Source of the DNA: a virus
Virus record (IMG/VR): IMGVR_UViG_3300018080_000118
Location: 1 to 64,000 of that record
Length of the DNA: 64,000 nucleotides
Reading direction: 5' to 3' (one strand)
The notes under the pieces were generated by a model, which worked only from the letters and a program-made list of their open reading frames with translations, was not told the DNA's origin and made no database searches. Of the stretch, positions 3,791-30,655 are shown piece by piece. Position 1 is the stretch's first letter, and the number at the start of each line of letters is the position of its first letter. The translations under genes and the position numbers were made by a program.

Positions 3791-3840
3791 CCTTACGTTT
3801 TAGAGCTGTCACAGCTTATCCCGGTTTAGGAGGAGAAAAG

Positions 3841-4464
3841 ATGCCCACACCGGAAGAGATTTTCATGGCGGCGTTTTCCGAGGAGCTCGAAAGCTCCACG
3901 ACGGAGGAGGCCCCAGAAATGCCCGTTCTCTCGAAGCTCGCCGAGAACCTCGGCCTCATGGAAGACGGGGAGGAAGAGGTCGAGATGCCTGTCCTCAGCA
4001 AACTCGCCGCCGCTTTCGAAGGCGACGAGACAGACGAGGACGAAGAGTCCGCAGAGCTCAGCCTCGAAGGCATGACGCAGCTCGAAAAGCTCGCGTTCAC
4101 CAAGTGGGCTGCCCGCAACGGCCTCACCAAGGAAGCCCTCTCGATGGCCGAGCTCAAGGACAAGGGCAAAGCCCTCGTCGAGAAGGGGAAGTCCACGCTG
4201 AAGGGCAAGGACTGGACCGCCGCCGAGAAGAAGCTCGAATCCGCCAAGGCCCAGAAGCCGAAGAGCTTCCGGCTCTTCAGCAAGCGGAAAGCCAAAGCAG
4301 GCGTCGCCGCAGCCGAGAAGGGCGTCGCCGCCGCGAAGGGCAAGCGCATGGCCCTCGGCAAGAAGGTGGGTCTCGGTGCCGCTGGCGGCGCAGCCGCTCT
4401 TCTGACGGCAGCCGCTGTCAAGAAAGCTCTCGGTGACCGCAAGAAGGACGAGAAGAAGAAGTAG
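3841..4464 (+). CDS. hypothetical protein with acidic N-half and basic C-half; candidate internal head protein
   Basis: AGGAG SD; duplicated EMPVLSKLA, several KxA sites, Gly/Ala hydrophobic C-terminal segment. Confidence 0.75.
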   Translation: MPTPEEIFMAAFSEELESSTTEEAPEMPVLSKLAENLGLMEDGEEEVEMPVLSKLAAAFEGDETDEDEESAELSLEGMTQLEKLAFTKWAARNGLTKEALSMAELKDKGKALVEKGKSTLKGKDWTAAEKKLESAKAQKPKSFRLFSKRKAKAGVAAAEKGVAAAKGKRMALGKKVGLGAAGGAAALLTAAAVKKALGDRKKDEKKK

Positions 4465-10269: not shown

Positions 10270-10672
10270 TTTTTGTAAACAGGCTTCCCTCGGTTACCTC
10301 GTGCAACAGCAGCACCTGGTGGCGTTGCGCCACCTGTCAAACGCCTAGTCCCGCAACGCTGCACCCTTCCGTGGTTGCCAGCAGGAAGCTTAGCTCTATC
10401 CGCACCGCCACAGAGTGACGTCCGTTTGGCTGTACACCTAACGGCAAAGGGGACTAGAGGCACTGTTCCTCTGTTGCAGTTTCCGGATGCAACGCCGCAT
10501 TGTCTTTTTACACCGACTACAGGTGAGGAGGATGGGCTAGAACGAGCTCGGACAAATGGTCCTCGAAGCCCCCTTCGAGGACCTGTGTCCGTGCTCAGTT
10601 CAGCGCCCCCATATATGCCTACCCACTCGTGAGTGAGCGACGGCGTTACGCCGCCACGAGGCATCGCTCGGT
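10270..10672 (-). ncRNA. candidate large structured RNA (about 400 nt), family unknown
   Basis: No convincing ORF; dense hairpins, several with GNRA-type loops on the - strand; lies next to the tmRNA and tRNA. Boundaries are approximate. Confidence 0.55.
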
Positions 10673-10763
10673 GAGATACTTATAGCAGGGCCGGAGGTGG
10701 CGGTAGAGACGTTCAGCTTCTTTTTGGAGGAATACTGACACCACCCCCGGCCCGAGTTTTATG

Positions 10764-10797
10764 AAAAGGGCTTCCAGGAATCTCTTCCTAGAAGCCC
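10764..10797 (-). terminator. terminator downstream of the tmRNA
   Basis: GGGCTTC..AGGAA / TTCCT..GAAGCCC stem followed by TTTT on the - strand. Confidence 0.6.
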
Positions 10798-10861
10798 CGT
10801 GCCGACACGCAGCATGGCTGGCTGCATGTTGTTCTTAATGGTCCGCCGAGCACGGAGCTTC

Positions 10862-11237
10862 TGGTGGAGGCGGTGGGAATCGAACCCACGTCCAGAATGC
10901 ACATCCCCACCTCTTCTACAAGCTTAGCCCCCTGTTGTTCCGCTGTGGGCCGCGTATCGAGTTTCTTTCCGGCTCGCAAAGTCAGGCCATCTTCTCGGCT
11001 CTTGCTCGACCAGCTTCAAGAACCCAGTCCGGATTCGTTGCGCCGAACTGACCTCCTCCAGACAAGGGAGAACAGTCGACGGAATGGGGCTGATTAAGCC
11101 GCCATCGCAGGGGCGAAAGCCCCCATCTTTGTTGGGTTGGCAGTTGAATTTGCCTGCCACGCTTTTTTACGAGGGTGCATGACATCCTCGGCTTGCAGAG
11201 ATGACTCAGTTACACCTGTCGAACCCAGTTCGCCCCC
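10862..11237 (-). ncRNA. ssrA: tmRNA
   Basis: 5' GGGGGCG pairs with 3' CGCCTCC-A-CCA (G3.U alanine identity); T-arm GTGGG-TTCGATT-CCCAC; tag frame 11141-11094 reads ANPTKMGAFAPAMAA-stop. Confidence 0.95.
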
Positions 11238-11292
11238 AAAGGTATTGCTTCCAGTTTAACGGCACCCCTGCCGATTATCCAGTCTCCACTGA

Positions 11293-11366
11293 TGCGCCCG
11301 GCTGGAGTCGAACCAGCAACCACCAGCTTTAGAGGCCGGCCGCTCTGCCATTAAGCGTACGGGCGC
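11293..11366 (-). tRNA. amber-suppressor tRNA, anticodon CUA; amino acid unknown
   Basis: Cloverleaf: acceptor GCGCCCG/CGGGCGC, D-arm CGCTT-AATGGCA-GAGCG, anticodon arm CCGGC-CT CTA AA-GCTGG, T-arm GCTGG-TTCGACT-CCAGC, discriminator A. CCA is not encoded (TCA). Confidence 0.9.
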
Positions 11367-11436
11367 AAACCCCCAGATGAATGCAGCGACACCTATCGCG
11401 AATCGGTGACCGTTAGGCTCCGGGGGGCCAGCTGGT

Positions 11437-11856
11437 TTACAGGAACTCCCCAAGGCCGAGGCCGTCGATGAGTTCCTTCTCGATTGAGCGGGCGCGCATT
11501 GCCCCCAGCTCGTCTTGAGGATAGCGGTGAGTCGTGACCAAGGAGCGTGCCTTGGCCTGCCCGCAGCAGCGACACTTGCTATCCCGCCAGTATTTGCGAG
11601 GCTTCTTGCGGATCCGAAGCATCAGGTTCAGGATGACCGTGATCCCTAGTGCCCGGGCCGGGTCTTTTCCCGCCATCTTGGCGGCGTCGCGTTCGCGCCA
11701 GGGCTTCTTCTTTTCCAGGTCCTTGTCGATGCGGGCGCGGCGCTGGAGCTCGGCCAGCTTCTTGTTCTGCTCTCGTAGTGCGGTGAGCTTCTCGTGGAAT
11801 CTTTGTCGAGTCGCGTCGTCCCGCGTGAGCATCTCTTTTACGGCGTCTTGTGACAT
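11437..11856 (-). CDS. hypothetical basic protein between the pth2-like gene and tRNA(CUA)
   Basis: AAGGAG SD; overlaps the upstream gene by 19 nt. Confidence 0.7.
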   Translation of the reverse strand: MSQDAVKEMLTRDDATRQRFHEKLTALREQNKKLAELQRRARIDKDLEKKKPWRERDAAKMAGKDPARALGITVILNLMLRIRKKPRKYWRDSKCRCCGQAKARSLVTTHRYPQDELGAMRARSIEKELIDGLGLGEFL

Positions 11857-12182
11857 AGTGCTGTCTCCTTCCAGAGTGGGAATCGGCTGAAGTGCCGACG
11901 GGTTTTTCCAGACACGGCTTCCGTGCAGAGGGCCGTGGCTTGGTCGTCGAGGTCAGGCTCCCTGAATAGCTGCGCTTGCACGCCTATCGACGATACGTGC
12001 CTGTGCGCTGCGAGCAGGGAATCCTCGTCAGGGACTTGGAGAATGATGAGGTGATCGACCCTGGAAGGGTCACGGCAGTTATGCTTGCCGCTTTCGAGTG
12101 CGGCGTGCGCAGCTTGGACAAGCTGTTGCGGGAGGGAAAGGTCTTTGCGAACGAACAGGTAATTGGCATGTACCTACAACAT
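11838..12182 (-). CDS. peptidyl-tRNA hydrolase 2 (Pth2)-like protein with in-frame amber codon at codon 3
   Basis: SD AAGGAGG (12194-12188), 5-nt spacer, ATG TTG TAG, then an open frame: VHANYLFVRKDLSLPQQLVQAAHAALE...LIILQVPDEDSL...LFREPDLDDQATALCTE...FPLW. These are Pth2-fold motifs. Absent from the ORF track. Confidence 0.8.
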
Positions 12183-12239
12183 GACGACCTCCTTTCAAGG
12201 GTAGTATACGATTCTGTCCGCGAAAAACTCCAGCTATTT

Positions 12240-13166
12240 CTAGAAGAGCTCTATGCCGAAGCCTTTCTGTTTGTTCAGTGCAGCGATGATTCCGTTAGTA
12301 GGCGTCATGCCACCGGAGCCTCCACGGACACCGCTCTGGCCGAATGCCTCTGCCATGAGGACTATCTTGGCTTTGAGTCTGCCGCTGCCAAGAGTGATGA
12401 GAGCTCGTTTGACCTTCGGATCTAGGAACGAGTCCGAACCGCCTCTCTGTTTCCTGAAGTGCCGTTCGCCCCAACCAAGTCCGCGCAGAATCACCTTGTC
12501 TATAGGTTTCCCGTCGTAGATCGCCGCGCAGAGTTCGAAGAGTTCGACAAACACGTCCGGAAGACACGTCGCGTATGTTCTCATGGTGGACACGCATCCG
12601 ACGGTGTGGTTGGTCTTACGCGACATTGGAACGATCTTGTACCCAGAAGCATTCGCCGCCTCTTCCATGAGTACAGCAGCGGGATCCCCGAAGGCATAGA
12701 GGGCGCGGTGCTTGTGGTAAGCTGAGAGAGTCCAGACCTTGGATGCTTCCAGGAAGGCCTGGGCTTCGTCGGCGATTTTGCCGCTCGCCTCGATGACCAG
12801 ACAGTCCAGGGTCTTGATATCATCTCTGATCATGGCCGCGCGCCAGCGTTGTTGGCCGTCGACAATGAAGTAGCTTCCGTCGGGTCTTCTCATCACGAGA
12901 AGCGCTCCGCAGGCGAAGTAGTTGAATGTTCGTGCCTTCTCCAGCACATGGGAGATGTTGTAATCGCGCTGGTACGTCGTATCGACGCCCAACACGCCCT
13001 TTCGAAGCCGCATACAACGGGGCCTCTGCCCAGGATCTTCAAAAGTAATCTTGCTTTTCTTCTTGGCCGCTTTCAGCTCTTTCACCATCTTCGTCGTATC
13101 GTCGCGTTTCGAGTTCTTCCGTTTCGCGGAAGCCTTCTTTTTGGAAGCCTTTTTCTTCTTTGGCAT
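12240..13166 (-). CDS. ParB/Srx-like domain protein with Lys-rich N-terminal tail
   Basis: VDTTYQR...RRPDGSYFIVDGQQRWRAA matches the ParB-N DG-x-x-R box; GGAGGAG SD. Confidence 0.75.
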   Translation of the reverse strand: MPKKKKASKKKASAKRKNSKRDDTTKMVKELKAAKKKSKITFEDPGQRPRCMRLRKGVLGVDTTYQRDYNISHVLEKARTFNYFACGALLVMRRPDGSYFIVDGQQRWRAAMIRDDIKTLDCLVIEASGKIADEAQAFLEASKVWTLSAYHKHRALYAFGDPAAVLMEEAANASGYKIVPMSRKTNHTVGCVSTMRTYATCLPDVFVELFELCAAIYDGKPIDKVILRGLGWGERHFRKQRGGSDSFLDPKVKRALITLGSGRLKAKIVLMAEAFGQSGVRGGSGGMTPTNGIIAALNKQKGFGIELF

Positions 13167-13182
13167 GAAGCAGTCTCCTCCT

Positions 13183-13833
13183 TTACTTCTCTGTTTCGTC
13201 GTCGAGATCGGGCATGTCGCCGTAGCTCAGAGACGAGCTGCAGCGCATGAGCTTCACGCGGCTGCCCGTAGCGCTGTAGGCTGAGCCCACGCCCTGGCCT
13301 GATGCGGCGAAGTTGGCGCACATGTTTTTCATTGCGCCGTACCCGAGCCCTGTGGAGATGGCGTCGATGTTGGCCCCCAGGAAGAGGATCTCCCAGGAGT
13401 ATTTCTCTCGCTGGTGCTCCACCATCTCCTTGACCTTGCGTCGGCCGTCGTCGCCAGGGAACTCCACGGAGTAGTTTTCAGCGCCGTCGGTGATGACCAC
13501 GAGGATCACCTTCTCCGGGCGCTCTCCTTCCGGCAACTTGTTGAGTCGGCCACCAACGTCGAGGATGGTCTTGCCAATGGCGTCGTTGAGACGTGTCCAT
13601 CCTCGGGCGAAGTATTCCTTCGACGTGAGTTCGGGCAGTTCCTTGATGTCCACGCCCTGGTGCAGCACTTCGTACTTGTCGTCGAAGAGCACGACGGTCA
13701 CCTGCGCGTCTCCGGGGACCTCCCGCTGCTCCTTGATGAACTCGTTGAACTTGGTGATGGTCTCCTGCTGCAGGGCGCTCATCGAGCCACTGCGGTCTAG
13801 GACGCAAACGATTTCTGTGAGGTCTTTCTTCAT
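13183..13833 (-). CDS. stand-alone von Willebrand factor A (vWA) domain protein
   Basis: MIDAS motif VLDRSGSM, T-x-L-x-DAIG, VITDGAEN, FLGANIDA. Confidence 0.9.
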   Translation of the reverse strand: MKKDLTEIVCVLDRSGSMSALQQETITKFNEFIKEQREVPGDAQVTVVLFDDKYEVLHQGVDIKELPELTSKEYFARGWTRLNDAIGKTILDVGGRLNKLPEGERPEKVILVVITDGAENYSVEFPGDDGRRKVKEMVEHQREKYSWEILFLGANIDAISTGLGYGAMKNMCANFAASGQGVGSAYSATGSRVKLMRCSSSLSYGDMPDLDDETEK

Positions 13834-28237: not shown

Positions 28238-28837
28238 ATGCCTATCATCCAGCAAGTGAAGGTCGATAACGAAGCCATTTCCGGCTTCTACCAGAAGATC
28301 CCCACGGAGGGCGACCTCCACCGGTTCGCCTCGGCTGAGGCCGGGAAGGCTCAGTTCGTGAGTCTGGCAGACTCTTCCGGCCGCATCGTGGTCGGGTCAG
28401 GCTACCTTGACGTCACGCTGGACTTCCGGTACCTGGTCGGCGTCAAGCAGCTCCAGGTCTACCAGGTAGGGACGACCTCAGGGTACGGTCAGATAGTCCC
28501 CAACGCGCAGGACGTCTCCATTGCCCGCAACAAGACCGGATCCAACTTCCCCATTGGCTTCGACCTGTCCAACCCAAGCTTCCACTTTTTCGACGAAGTC
28601 TCCCCGGACGTTGTTCGGCTCTACAACTTTGCCACGACGGACGTCGTCCTCTTCATGGTGCCTCACACGGCCACCCCGGCAGCGATCTCGAACCGGCAGA
28701 TCATCGACAACCAGGGCGACAACATCGCCGTCGAGCTGCTTGGTGACGGCGACGGCATCCTTCTTCGCTCTCCGAATGGTCGTCGCGCGTTGCTCCGTCT
28801 CACGGACAACCTCAATCTCAACATCCAGCCGAAGTAG
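28238..28837 (+). CDS. hypothetical virion protein
   Basis: AAGGAG SD; C-terminal GILLRSPNG..L motif typical of fibre-associated proteins. Confidence 0.7.
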   Translation: MPIIQQVKVDNEAISGFYQKIPTEGDLHRFASAEAGKAQFVSLADSSGRIVVGSGYLDVTLDFRYLVGVKQLQVYQVGTTSGYGQIVPNAQDVSIARNKTGSNFPIGFDLSNPSFHFFDEVSPDVVRLYNFATTDVVLFMVPHTATPAAISNRQIIDNQGDNIAVELLGDGDGILLRSPNGRRALLRLTDNLNLNIQPK

Positions 28838-28839
28838 GC

Positions 28840-28860
28840 TGACAACTCCAGGAGTGGTCA
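28840..28860 (+). repeat. 21-bp imperfect palindrome, copy 3; overlaps the SD of the next gene
   Basis: TGACAACTC-CAG-GAGTGGTCA. Confidence 0.9.
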
Positions 28861-28861
28861 C

Positions 28862-29641
28862 ATGGTCAAGAAGAACTCTCGCCGACATGAAGGCTGGAAG
28901 GTCACGAAGAGGACCGTCGTCAAGGACCCAACAGGGGTAGGCATCGAACGCGTCGAGCGCGTCCGGACGGCAGGGATCCTCAAGAAGCTCTCCCACGCTT
29001 TCGTGGACGAGATCGACAAGATGGCCAATGGGGCCGAGGCAGCGGGCGGCAGGACCCCGTCCGAGGAGCAGGTCATCAAGTTCCTCGACAAGCACCCCAA
29101 GCCCACGGACGAGCAATTTCACGAGTGGGCCGAGAGTCAGGGACTGAACAAGCATAAGGCTGAGCAGGTGGCCTACAAAATTCTCTCGGACATCATCAAC
29201 AAAGGGGAATCGAAGGGGAAGGTACCCTCCGGCGTGACACCCAAGATGGTGGCCGAGGGGACAAAAGTGGAGAAGGAGCACACACCGAACCCCCTCATCG
29301 CGCGCAAGATTACTCTCGATCACCAGGCGGAACACGCGGGGTACTATCCTGCACTCAAGAAGATGGAACAGCGGCTGGAGAAGAAGGCAATGGGGTGGGG
29401 CTCGGTGACGAAGAGTCTCCGGGGTTCGATGGCGATGGGTAAGTACGTCCCGAAGGCTCAGCGCGTGGCTGGGGGAGGCAAGAGGATTCTCTCAGGCGGT
29501 GGTATGAAGACCATCGTCGGCAGCAAAGCCGGCGAAAGCGTTACTCGCCCCAATCTGAACATCAGGACCGGACAACCAAAGATGAAGAAAGTCGGGGCCT
29601 TTTTCATGGCCTTTGTGGACGAGCTGGAACGGAAGACCTAG
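28862..29641 (+). CDS. DUF5661-like domain protein with KxA tags
   Basis: GTKVEKEHT...ARKITLDH...YYPALKKME pattern; AFVDEIDKMA and AFVDELERKT motifs. Confidence 0.7.
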   Translation: MVKKNSRRHEGWKVTKRTVVKDPTGVGIERVERVRTAGILKKLSHAFVDEIDKMANGAEAAGGRTPSEEQVIKFLDKHPKPTDEQFHEWAESQGLNKHKAEQVAYKILSDIINKGESKGKVPSGVTPKMVAEGTKVEKEHTPNPLIARKITLDHQAEHAGYYPALKKMEQRLEKKAMGWGSVTKSLRGSMAMGKYVPKAQRVAGGGKRILSGGGMKTIVGSKAGESVTRPNLNIRTGQPKMKKVGAFFMAFVDELERKT

Positions 29642-30655
29642 ATGGGCATCAGCAGATACCTCGGGGATGCGTTCAGCATCCCGAACCTTTTCAGGAACGG
29701 CGGCCTGGATTTCCAGGACGACGTGAACCCGTTCCCTGCCTTCTACACAGTGGCCGGGGCTACGAAGAATGCGCCGATCCTGGAGAATTCCTGGTCCCAC
29801 GTCTTCGGCGAAACTCCGGCGTCTCCCGGCGCTCCGTTCAACTACTTCAGGCTCTCCCTGCCCCAGCCCGATCCGATCTCTTTGACGCAAGACTTCAACA
29901 GCGCGAACGCTACTTTTGATTCCGAGCTACCCGTGACCTCTGGCACGTCCGAGCTGGAGCCGTACAACTACCGGTCGTTGGAGCCGAACCTCCTGTACCA
30001 GGGAGACTTCTCCCTCTCTTTTGCTATCCGGGTGCCACAGGGGGAAATATCCCTTGGCATTGCCTATCAGACAGCAGACGCAGAGGGTTTGGCAGACCCG
30101 CAGTACATGGAGCTTGACGCACTTTTCTCCAGCAATTCGTGGCGCAGATACTCCGGCGTTGTACCCGTCGGCACCGCCAAGTTGGTGGCTATCGGCGTTC
30201 AGGTTCAACGACGAGGAAGCGCCCAGGCCGTTGAGGCACACGTGGGCAACATCATGCTGGCAGCCGGGGCCTACGACGACCTCCCGTATACGGGAGATCC
30301 CGCTGCCCATGCCTTCCCACGAGGAGCGATCGTCATGACCCTTGGTCTCCGCTGTCCCCCCGGTTTCGTTGAGGTATCGCCCGACGAAACGTATCCTAGA
30401 GAGGGCGAGCCGGGGCAGACAGGCGGTGCATTGAAGCACGAGCATGACCTGGTGCAGAGCATGTACCCCAAAAGCTCGTGGCCCAGGAGATCGCTGCTGG
30501 ATAGCGGAGATGCCACGGGCATCCCGGGCCTGAACGAGTGGGATGAGTCTCGGGGCGACACCGCCGTTGGCCACGAGCACCCGATCATTGATGACTCTGG
30601 AGAGGACAACACAGAGCCCAACTACCGAGGGTATCTGCTTTGTAAGCGCGTATGA
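29642..30655 (+). CDS. tail fibre protein with tail-collar domain
   Basis: FPRGAIVM...CPPGF, TGG..KHEH, C-terminal EPNY..YLLCKR. Confidence 0.7.
   Translation: MGISRYLGDAFSIPNLFRNGGLDFQDDVNPFPAFYTVAGATKNAPILENSWSHVFGETPASPGAPFNYFRLSLPQPDPISLTQDFNSANATFDSELPVTSGTSELEPYNYRSLEPNLLYQGDFSLSFAIRVPQGEISLGIAYQTADAEGLADPQYMELDALFSSNSWRRYSGVVPVGTAKLVAIGVQVQRRGSAQAVEAHVGNIMLAAGAYDDLPYTGDPAAHAFPRGAIVMTLGLRCPPGFVEVSPDETYPREGEPGQTGGALKHEHDLVQSMYPKSSWPRRSLLDSGDATGIPGLNEWDESRGDTAVGHEHPIIDDSGEDNTEPNYRGYLLCKRV

Follow-up and report, generated by a model that had tools for sequence, protein, structure and literature searches.

In the virus record IMGVR_UViG_3300018080_000118, a gene with a predicted peptidyl-tRNA hydrolase 2 (PTH2) fold begins with a Shine-Dalgarno (SD) sequence, two codons and an in-frame amber stop, and a tRNA with the anticodon CUA lies downstream on the same strand. 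We propose that a UAG-led PTH2-fold gene and a same-strand tRNA(CUA) form a widespread two-part phage module in which translation of the enzyme depends on suppression, and we put the probability of this reading at roughly 0.62. The protein is probably made only when the phage tRNA(CUA) overrides the stop. The window analyzed here is the first 64 kb of that single linear IMG/VR record of 135,946 bp, which has a G+C content of 59% and a CheckV completeness of about 70%.

The layout of the locus (Table 1) had been proposed in a sequence-only reading, which placed SD-ATG-TTG-TAG on the minus strand, followed by 111 open codons up to a TAA at 11838, with the next canonical start near codon 68 and an unassigned open reading frame (ORF), a tRNA(CUA) and a transfer-messenger RNA (tmRNA) downstream. 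The leader proved accurate to the base and the frame stays open as described. The first in-frame ATG, GTG or TTG past the TAG is a GTG at 11981, 64 codons on (codon 68 counted from the ATG), and ARAGORN and Rfam found the two RNAs in the predicted order behind the ORF. The amber-led anatomy of the PTH2-like gene is confirmed, and the gene cannot be translated from a canonical start unless the UAG is read. The interval 10864-12300 is covered with 0 differences by assembled contigs of three public runs, two of which are possibly the source sample and two equally large contigs of which are possibly one data set filed twice. Scanned for promoters and terminators, the interval 10500-13400 gave none on the minus strand, which says nothing either way on an operon.

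A search of viral contigs with the single protein returned no relative; relatives were found with a family alignment and comprise 29 IMG/VR loci, 76 metagenome loci and 8 loci of GTDB genomes (given L numbers below). These produced 113 gene models, from 112 loci and this phage, L104 giving none. Some contigs are present in two collections, so counts of clusters are the fairer figure. In 94 of the 113 models, a start is followed by 0-8 sense codons and an in-frame TAG; the conserved R-x-D-L strand lies 5-26 codons further on, and this interval offers no usable canonical start. Two more are TAG-led and have an alternative start, bringing the TAG-led total to 96. The remaining models comprise four that are N-terminally extended and also begin M-x-x-x-TAG or similar, one led by TAA (L095), nine with ordinary starts and three cut by contig ends. 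Clustering at 70% identity gave 47 clusters, and TAG-led genes occur in 36 of them. The relatives range from 27 to 67% in G+C and from 30 to 75% in protein identity to the gene described here, and the contigs of some have been binned with Planctomycetota and Actinomycetota genomes. The TAA-led gene is an ochre variant on a contig too short to show a tRNA.

Within the leaders the TAG alone is kept. The sequences before it run from 1 to 9 codons (median 3), start with ATG in 90 of 96 cases and encode peptides unrelated in sequence among relatives. The GGAGG-type SD, its spacing and the TAG recur in the closest relatives, which are 75% and 68% identical, and the leader residue there is changed. 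SD-like 4-mers stand upstream of 30 of 71 distinct leaders, compared with a background of 15.7%. Directly after the TAG, 53 of the 96 leaders have G, 41 have A, 2 have C and none has T, so that this base is a purine in 94 of 96 and in 35 of the 36 clusters; a 3' purine is said, in the work of Bossi and of Miller and Albertini, to be a context favouring amber suppression. The body of the family gene never holds a second TAG. When a leader was defined as a start within 9 codons, then TAG, with no canonical start in the next 5 codons, it was present in 72 of 85 distinct family ORFs (85%), compared with 86 of the 1,507 other ORFs at the same loci that are 90 codons or longer (5.7%).

Among these other ORFs, a start followed by a few codons and a stop, with no further start, was more frequent with TAG (86 of 342) than with TGA (124 of 770) or TAA (50 of 395). 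Some phages may have additional TAG-led genes close to the module.

One TAG in one metagenomic contig, ahead of an ORF of atypical codon usage, might be an assembly error or a recent nonsense mutation in a pseudogene. The sequence-only reading had itself named this danger, with a sense codon in homologues as its sign. Against this, 36 of 47 clusters retain the TAG, the contigs of the three runs are identical, and the ORF is uninterrupted, carries invariant motifs and is modelled with a confident fold; we find this explanation scarcely credible and count it as refuted by the conservation. Initiation at a CTG at codon 9, the other objection raised at the outset, is contradicted by the next clade, where ATA or GTG occupies that position.

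The second part of the module is the tRNA. ARAGORN identified 75 tRNA(CUA) genes beside the gene models, all on the strand of the gene. Of these, 53 lie downstream of it and 22 upstream; the median distance is 438 nt and the largest is 1,807 nt. Flanks of 1 kb or more on both sides were available for 54 TAG-led loci, of which 45 had a tRNA(CUA), 1 had a tRNA(UUA) and 8 had neither. At many loci the tRNA(CUA) is the sole tRNA. Joint conservation of the early TAG and a neighbouring tRNA(CUA) had been suggested as a test of the idea, and both are conserved across very distant phages. Since forms with ordinary starts often also adjoin a tRNA(CUA), the link between enzyme and tRNA is wider than the gate. 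A tRNA(UUA) adjoins L025, which has an ordinary start, and L070, which is TAG-led.

The same arrangement is present in cultured phages. A tblastn search of GenBank phages matched 45 records. Eight of these phages, all carrying standard-code annotation, were examined, and seven combine an early TAG with a tRNA(CUA) in the genome, near the gene or far from it: Arash, ME3, GAP32, RsoM2USA, Xoo-sp13, CM1 and IkeLoa. In Salmonella phage Arash (L114, OQ632216.1, 2483-3878), the leader is ATG-CTG-TAG. GenBank splits the gene into gp85c and a truncated gp84c, 'peptidyl-tRNA hydrolase', whose call begins at an internal start. A tRNA lying 986 nt downstream (locus 3804-3875) is entered as 'tRNA-Phe', and ARAGORN reads its anticodon as CTA. 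The leader of RsoM2USA is ATG-TTG-TAG, as in this phage, and its gene is unannotated; in the Serratia BF and Erwinia SNUABM phages nothing is annotated under the tblastn match. An amber leader explains why the gene is missing or truncated in these four sets of annotations. ME3, GAP32 and CM1 are TAG-led, as is Xoo-sp13, which has an ATG 4 codons after the TAG. Mycobacteriophage IkeLoa is ambiguous: it reads ATG-TAG-GTG, its GenBank gene starts at the GTG, and a tRNA(cta) lies 250 nt downstream. The eighth phage, RaK2, has an ordinary ATG, and its tRNA region contains no suppressor among the 8 tRNAs read by ARAGORN, Rfam finding 9 with one unread. Other tRNA-related genes lie near the gene: in Xoo-sp13 (L116, 636-1082) that of a protein annotated with a 'glutamyl-tRNA amidotransferase' domain, and in ME3 (L117, 1-268) that of a tRNA nucleotidyltransferase. 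CM1 carries both CUA and UUA tRNAs (176611-176685).

Leaders such as that of IkeLoa bring up an alternative in which ATG-x-TAG is a miniature upstream ORF, the enzyme is made by re-initiation or from a non-canonical start past the TAG, and the tRNA(CUA) serves other purposes. The codon after the TAG is ATT, ATA, ATC or ATG in 35 of the 96 TAG-led loci, GTG is the annotated start in IkeLoa, and an ATG lies 4 codons past the TAG in L005 as well as in Xoo-sp13. However, the next codon in the phage described here is GTA, and 61 of the 96 loci have a codon that is not known to initiate (GTA, GTT, GGC, GGT, AAA, GAA, CAC and others). A miniature ORF also gives no reason for TAG at 96 loci against TAA at one, and it leaves the same-strand tRNA(CUA) unexplained. 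We consider this alternative quite unlikely, and read-through of the UAG remains our preferred explanation of how the gene is expressed.

Suppression of a single amber codon must also be distinguished from a wider change of code. The genes of the 136-kb record were called under the standard code with our own crude gene caller, trained on long ORFs, which gave 130 genes and a coding density of 93.6%. Stops in 129 of the called genes were TAA (46), TAG (44) and TGA (39), and TAG terminates some very long genes. From one stop to the next in frame, the median was 13.5 codons for TAG, 19 for TAA and 13 for TGA; across the record, back-up stops after TAG gave no signal and were no closer than after TGA. 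No other SD-led case of a start, a few codons, a TAG and a long ORF without starts was found in the record, the PTH2-like gene standing alone. Of the features of phages that use genetic code 15, the record has the phage-encoded suppressor tRNA(CUA), but neither the many in-frame TAGs and the rarity of TAG as a terminator nor the accessory code-change genes (release factor, aminoacyl-tRNA synthetase). Searches of the 136 kb for RF-1 (PF00472), PF00749 (GlnRS-type) and SmpB gave no match. The sequence-only reading had held that TAG is otherwise a normal stop here and that the genome is not recoded throughout, and the stop usage and coding density agree with it. On 136 kb of DNA, the phage is not recoded.

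A partly recoded phage, in which the TAG would be an ordinary sense codon with no regulatory role, is very unlikely in our judgement. Some relatives lie on large AT-rich contigs, a kind known to be recoded, about 30% of the genome of this phage is missing, and the database proteins P0003 and P0015 are translated with Q at the position of the TAG. We rejected this Q as an independent sense codon because the DNA of L002, which encodes P0015, has a TAG there that was rendered as Q. Among the relatives, recoded phages could not be told from the rest by local coding coverage of the 10-kb loci. Against partial recoding stand the many genes ended by TAG, the absence of any other SD-led gene in need of read-through and the lack of a second TAG in the family gene body. 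In addition, the position of the TAG is kept when the surrounding residues are not, and the layout recurs in the standard-code phages described above.

The sequence-only reading had described the product as an intact Pth2-type protein. The ORF is intact and the Pth2 fold was supported, whereas orthology to Pth2 was not. Pfam PF01981 matched with 23.0 bits, the cut-off being 23 (E 1e-4, profile positions 4-82 of 115), and the PHROG match was phrog_1866, whose function is unassigned (E 4.5e-7). An AlphaFold model built from a 37-sequence family alignment had a confidence score (pLDDT) of 92.9 and showed the Pth2 alpha/beta fold. In a Foldseek search of the PDB, a kind of check suggested at the outset, ranks 1-12 were all Pth2/Bit1 structures, with probability 1.00 and template modelling (TM) scores of 0.65-0.74. 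The NCBIfam equivalog TIGR00283 scored 21 bits against a cut-off of 82, and NF003314 scored 14.6 bits against 126. The catalytic residues of Pth2 are a Lys and an Asp. Across the 37 family members, D11, Q20-A25 (QAAHAA, including H23), L53, D74 (in F-x-E-P-D) and T80 are invariant. On the sequences and the model, the protein belongs to the Pth2-fold superfamily as a distant member; it has a conserved putative active site of its own and is not an orthologue of the archaeal enzyme. The family is large, since a profile search collected 5,270 representatives (at 50% identity) with E <=1e-3 and 2,780 with E <=1e-10.

Fused forms of the protein occur in L005/L071, L059, Xoo-sp13 (L116) and CM1 (L121), in which a domain of about 180 amino acids precedes the PTH2-like domain. 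These fused forms also start M-x-x-(x)-TAG. The additional domain contains H-D-containing motifs; in L005 and others it had no Pfam or PDB sequence match and only a faint match to HDIG (E 0.062).

From the sequence we infer a mechanism that includes read-through itself, the inserted residue and the job of the enzyme. Ribosomes would initiate at the SD-ATG and, at codon 3, either host release factor 1 (RF1) would terminate translation after a dipeptide or charged tRNA(CUA) would insert a residue, giving a 114-residue protein. The level of the enzyme would then track the success of the suppressor against RF1, and with the UAG placed so early a failure would cost just a di- to octapeptide. The job likeliest by fold is hydrolysis of ester-linked peptidyl- or aminoacyl-tRNA. 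Suppression would be expected to cause more run-through into 3' ends and more stalled or dropped peptidyl-tRNA, so an extra hydrolase would plausibly be useful at that time. In this clade a tmRNA has been added behind the tRNA, which would fit a theme of ribosome rescue.

We also entertain, as an unlikely extension, a homeostat in which the PTH2-like enzyme would hydrolyse aminoacyl- or peptidyl-tRNA(CUA) and its own UAG would gauge the ratio of suppressor to RF1, much as the UGA of prfB does for its own product. In layouts such as this one, termination early at the UAG may also, by transcriptional polarity, silence the downstream tRNA and tmRNA. If true, suppression would be held at a tolerable level, which would explain a suppressor in phages that end a third of their genes with TAG.

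Several observations weigh against the proposed dependence on suppression. About 11 of the 47 clusters lack a plain amber leader, and L006, L007/L020, L058/L066 and L061 have ordinary starts yet lie beside a tRNA(CUA), so the gate is dispensable in about a fifth of the clusters. Many of the 148 best family representatives seem to have ordinary N-termini, so the gate is not universal in the wider family. A suppressor tRNA is absent from the fetched flank of 8 of the 54 well-flanked TAG-led loci. Re-initiation is conceivable at the 35 loci with a potential initiation codon after the TAG and in IkeLoa. Because TAG ends 44 of 129 genes without closer back-up stops, a strong suppressor should be costly, and a weak one would yield little enzyme; the argument from cost cuts both ways. 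The codon usage of the PTH2-like ORF is atypical for the genome, with a log-odds of -0.01 per codon (at least 0.12 being required for a confident ORF). The protein misses the equivalog models and its Pfam score is exactly at the cut-off. Finally, the record is only about 70% complete.

Between the PTH2-like gene and the tRNA lies ORF-X, which is helical and basic and has a C-x-C-C...H cluster common to L030 and L031. It belongs to no Pfam, PHROG or NCBIfam family, and its ESM Atlas scores (<=0.80) are at noise level. Homologues in the same slot were found only in the clades of this phage, L030-L032 and L034-L039 (phmmer; hhalign 95%). Kinship with ORFs of AT-rich loci, suggested by jackhmmer on a small database of our own, was rejected at an hhalign probability of just 13%, and the small ORFs of the actinobacterial and planctomycete loci are unrelated. 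Many other lineages have a small ORF in this slot that is unrelated to ORF-X. The genes upstream of the module are a DUF6551/ParB-like gene, a VWA-domain gene and a DUF7873 gene.

The tRNA(CUA) and the tmRNA are the only tRNA and the only tmRNA of the 136-kb record. In the Rfam alignment, the tRNA is a canonical cloverleaf with G1-C72, discriminator A73, an anticodon stem of 5 bp, the anticodon loop C-U-C-U-A-A-A, a variable loop of 5 nt and no encoded CCA. Two other descriptions were discarded: a Gln-like U1:A72 acceptor guessed from the ARAGORN coordinates is replaced by the G1-C72 and A73 of the alignment, and the ARAGORN label 'tRNA-Pyl' mirrors the anticodon only, the cloverleaf lacking the tRNA(Pyl)-type architecture. 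The tmRNA match is full length (model positions 1-374 of 374) and compares with a gathering score of 47. A tmRNA stands behind the tRNA only in this phage, L030, L031 and L032, and in L006, and the gene order of L030-L032 is identical to that described here. On this distribution, the tmRNA is a clade-specific addition outside the conserved core. The 'ribosome-rescue circuit' of the sequence-only reading is supported in part, by the amber gate and the conserved tRNA(CUA); the tmRNA is confined to this clade and L006.

Table 1. Positions of the amber-led gene and its downstream neighbours in the 64-kb window.
Feature	Position	Strand	Basis or remark
Shine-Dalgarno AAGGAGG	12188..12194	-	read in sequence; 5 nt upstream of the leader ATG
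Two-codon leader ATG-TTG	12177..12182	-	ATG 12182-12180, TTG 12179-12177
In-frame amber TAG, codon 3, then GTA	12174..12176	-	read in sequence; conserved in relatives
PTH2-fold body (predicted), 111 codons + TAA (11840-11838)	11838..12173	-	Pfam, PHROG, AlphaFold, Foldseek
ORF-X, 139 amino acids	11437..11856	-	overlaps the end of the PTH2-like gene by 19 nt; own SD-like AGGAG
tRNA, anticodon CUA	11293..11366	-	Rfam RF00005, 54.6 bits; ARAGORN 11291-11367
tmRNA	10862..11237	-	Rfam RF00023, 156.1 bits; ARAGORN, with tag peptide

Two further observations concern TAG elsewhere in the record. By the crude gene calls, TAG stops cluster beyond the window, in 13 of 21 genes at 69134-82871 and in 6 of 6 at 128033-135208, compared with 7 of 30 genes in the 16-62 kb block. 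At 28238-30655 of the window (plus strand), three successive ORFs of 199, 259 and 337 amino acids share one frame. The gaps between them are a TAG plus 8 codons and a TAG followed immediately by ATG, and read-through would fuse all three. In the record, TAG is followed by such an in-frame ORF neighbour no more often than TAA or TGA is, and no PHROG family was found for any of the three ORFs, which gives no help on whether they are one gene.

Until now, phage suppressor tRNAs have been treated as a means of changing the code wholesale. The phages described here use the standard code, and their suppressor would have one conserved 'client' gene. If the proposed dependence on suppression is true, the module would be a natural translational switch operated by a tRNA and would give a concrete purpose to the unexplained CUA tRNAs of cultured jumbo phages. 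It is directly testable in laboratory phages of Salmonella, Acinetobacter, Cronobacter, Ralstonia and Mycobacterium smegmatis, and it may supply a compact, evolved part for genetic-code engineering.

The sequence-only reading had known of no characterized example, and no description of the module was found in the literature searched, supplementary tables aside. The available text of the RsoM2USA paper (PMC8504454) reports one CUA suppressor with 'several potential genes' as targets and names none there. That of the Arash paper contains neither 'suppressor' nor 'amber' nor 'stop codon'. A 2026 jumbo-phage survey and a Klebsiella phage paper, in the parts available, treat suppressors in general terms only. 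The accessible portions of the Borges preprint and of the theta-ribozyme, zeta-crAss and phAss-1 papers do not mention a hydrolase or peptidyl, Pth or tmRNA. Within this literature, as far as its texts extend, the module is an undescribed variation on suppressor-dependent phage expression and on autoregulation by an in-frame stop.

Among related phage systems, as described in the available part of the preprint, code-15 phages, which read TAG as Gln (Borges et al., 10.1101/2021.08.26.457843), likewise encode a tRNA(CUA), and in-frame stops are proposed to restrain some of their genes until the suppressor is active; here, in contrast, TAG stays a stop and a single conserved gene carries one TAG in its first codons. 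The tRNA arrays of cluster C mycobacteriophages also hold a PTH2-like gene and a tmRNA together with phage tRNAs, and their authors suggest that rescue factors accompany extra tRNAs, whereas the sections available mention neither a leading stop codon nor a link to a CUA tRNA (PMC5966550).

The archaeal and eukaryotic Pth2/Bit1 proteins (PDB 2zv3, 3erj, 1q7s, 1wn2, 1rlk, 1xty) share with the phage protein the fold, the R-x-D-L strand and the Q-x-x-H-A helix motif. The phage family differs in its identity of only 13-23% to them and in its own invariant F-x-E-P-D...T-A motif, and its function is predicted only. At the level of the leader, elements of the lambda bar type are two-codon minigenes, and an unsuppressed SD-ATG-TTG-TAG is formally a two-codon minigene as well, although the leaders of relatives vary from 1 to 9 codons. 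A similar regulatory logic is that of prfB, the gene for release factor 2 (RF2), which is autoregulated through an in-frame UGA that is escaped by a +1 frameshift and on which its product acts. As in prfB, an early in-frame stop, conserved here in 96 of 113 models and 36 of 47 clusters, would let the decoding state set the output of a translation-factor-like gene; unlike in prfB, the same frame continues past the stop, and the escape would be by a suppressor tRNA.

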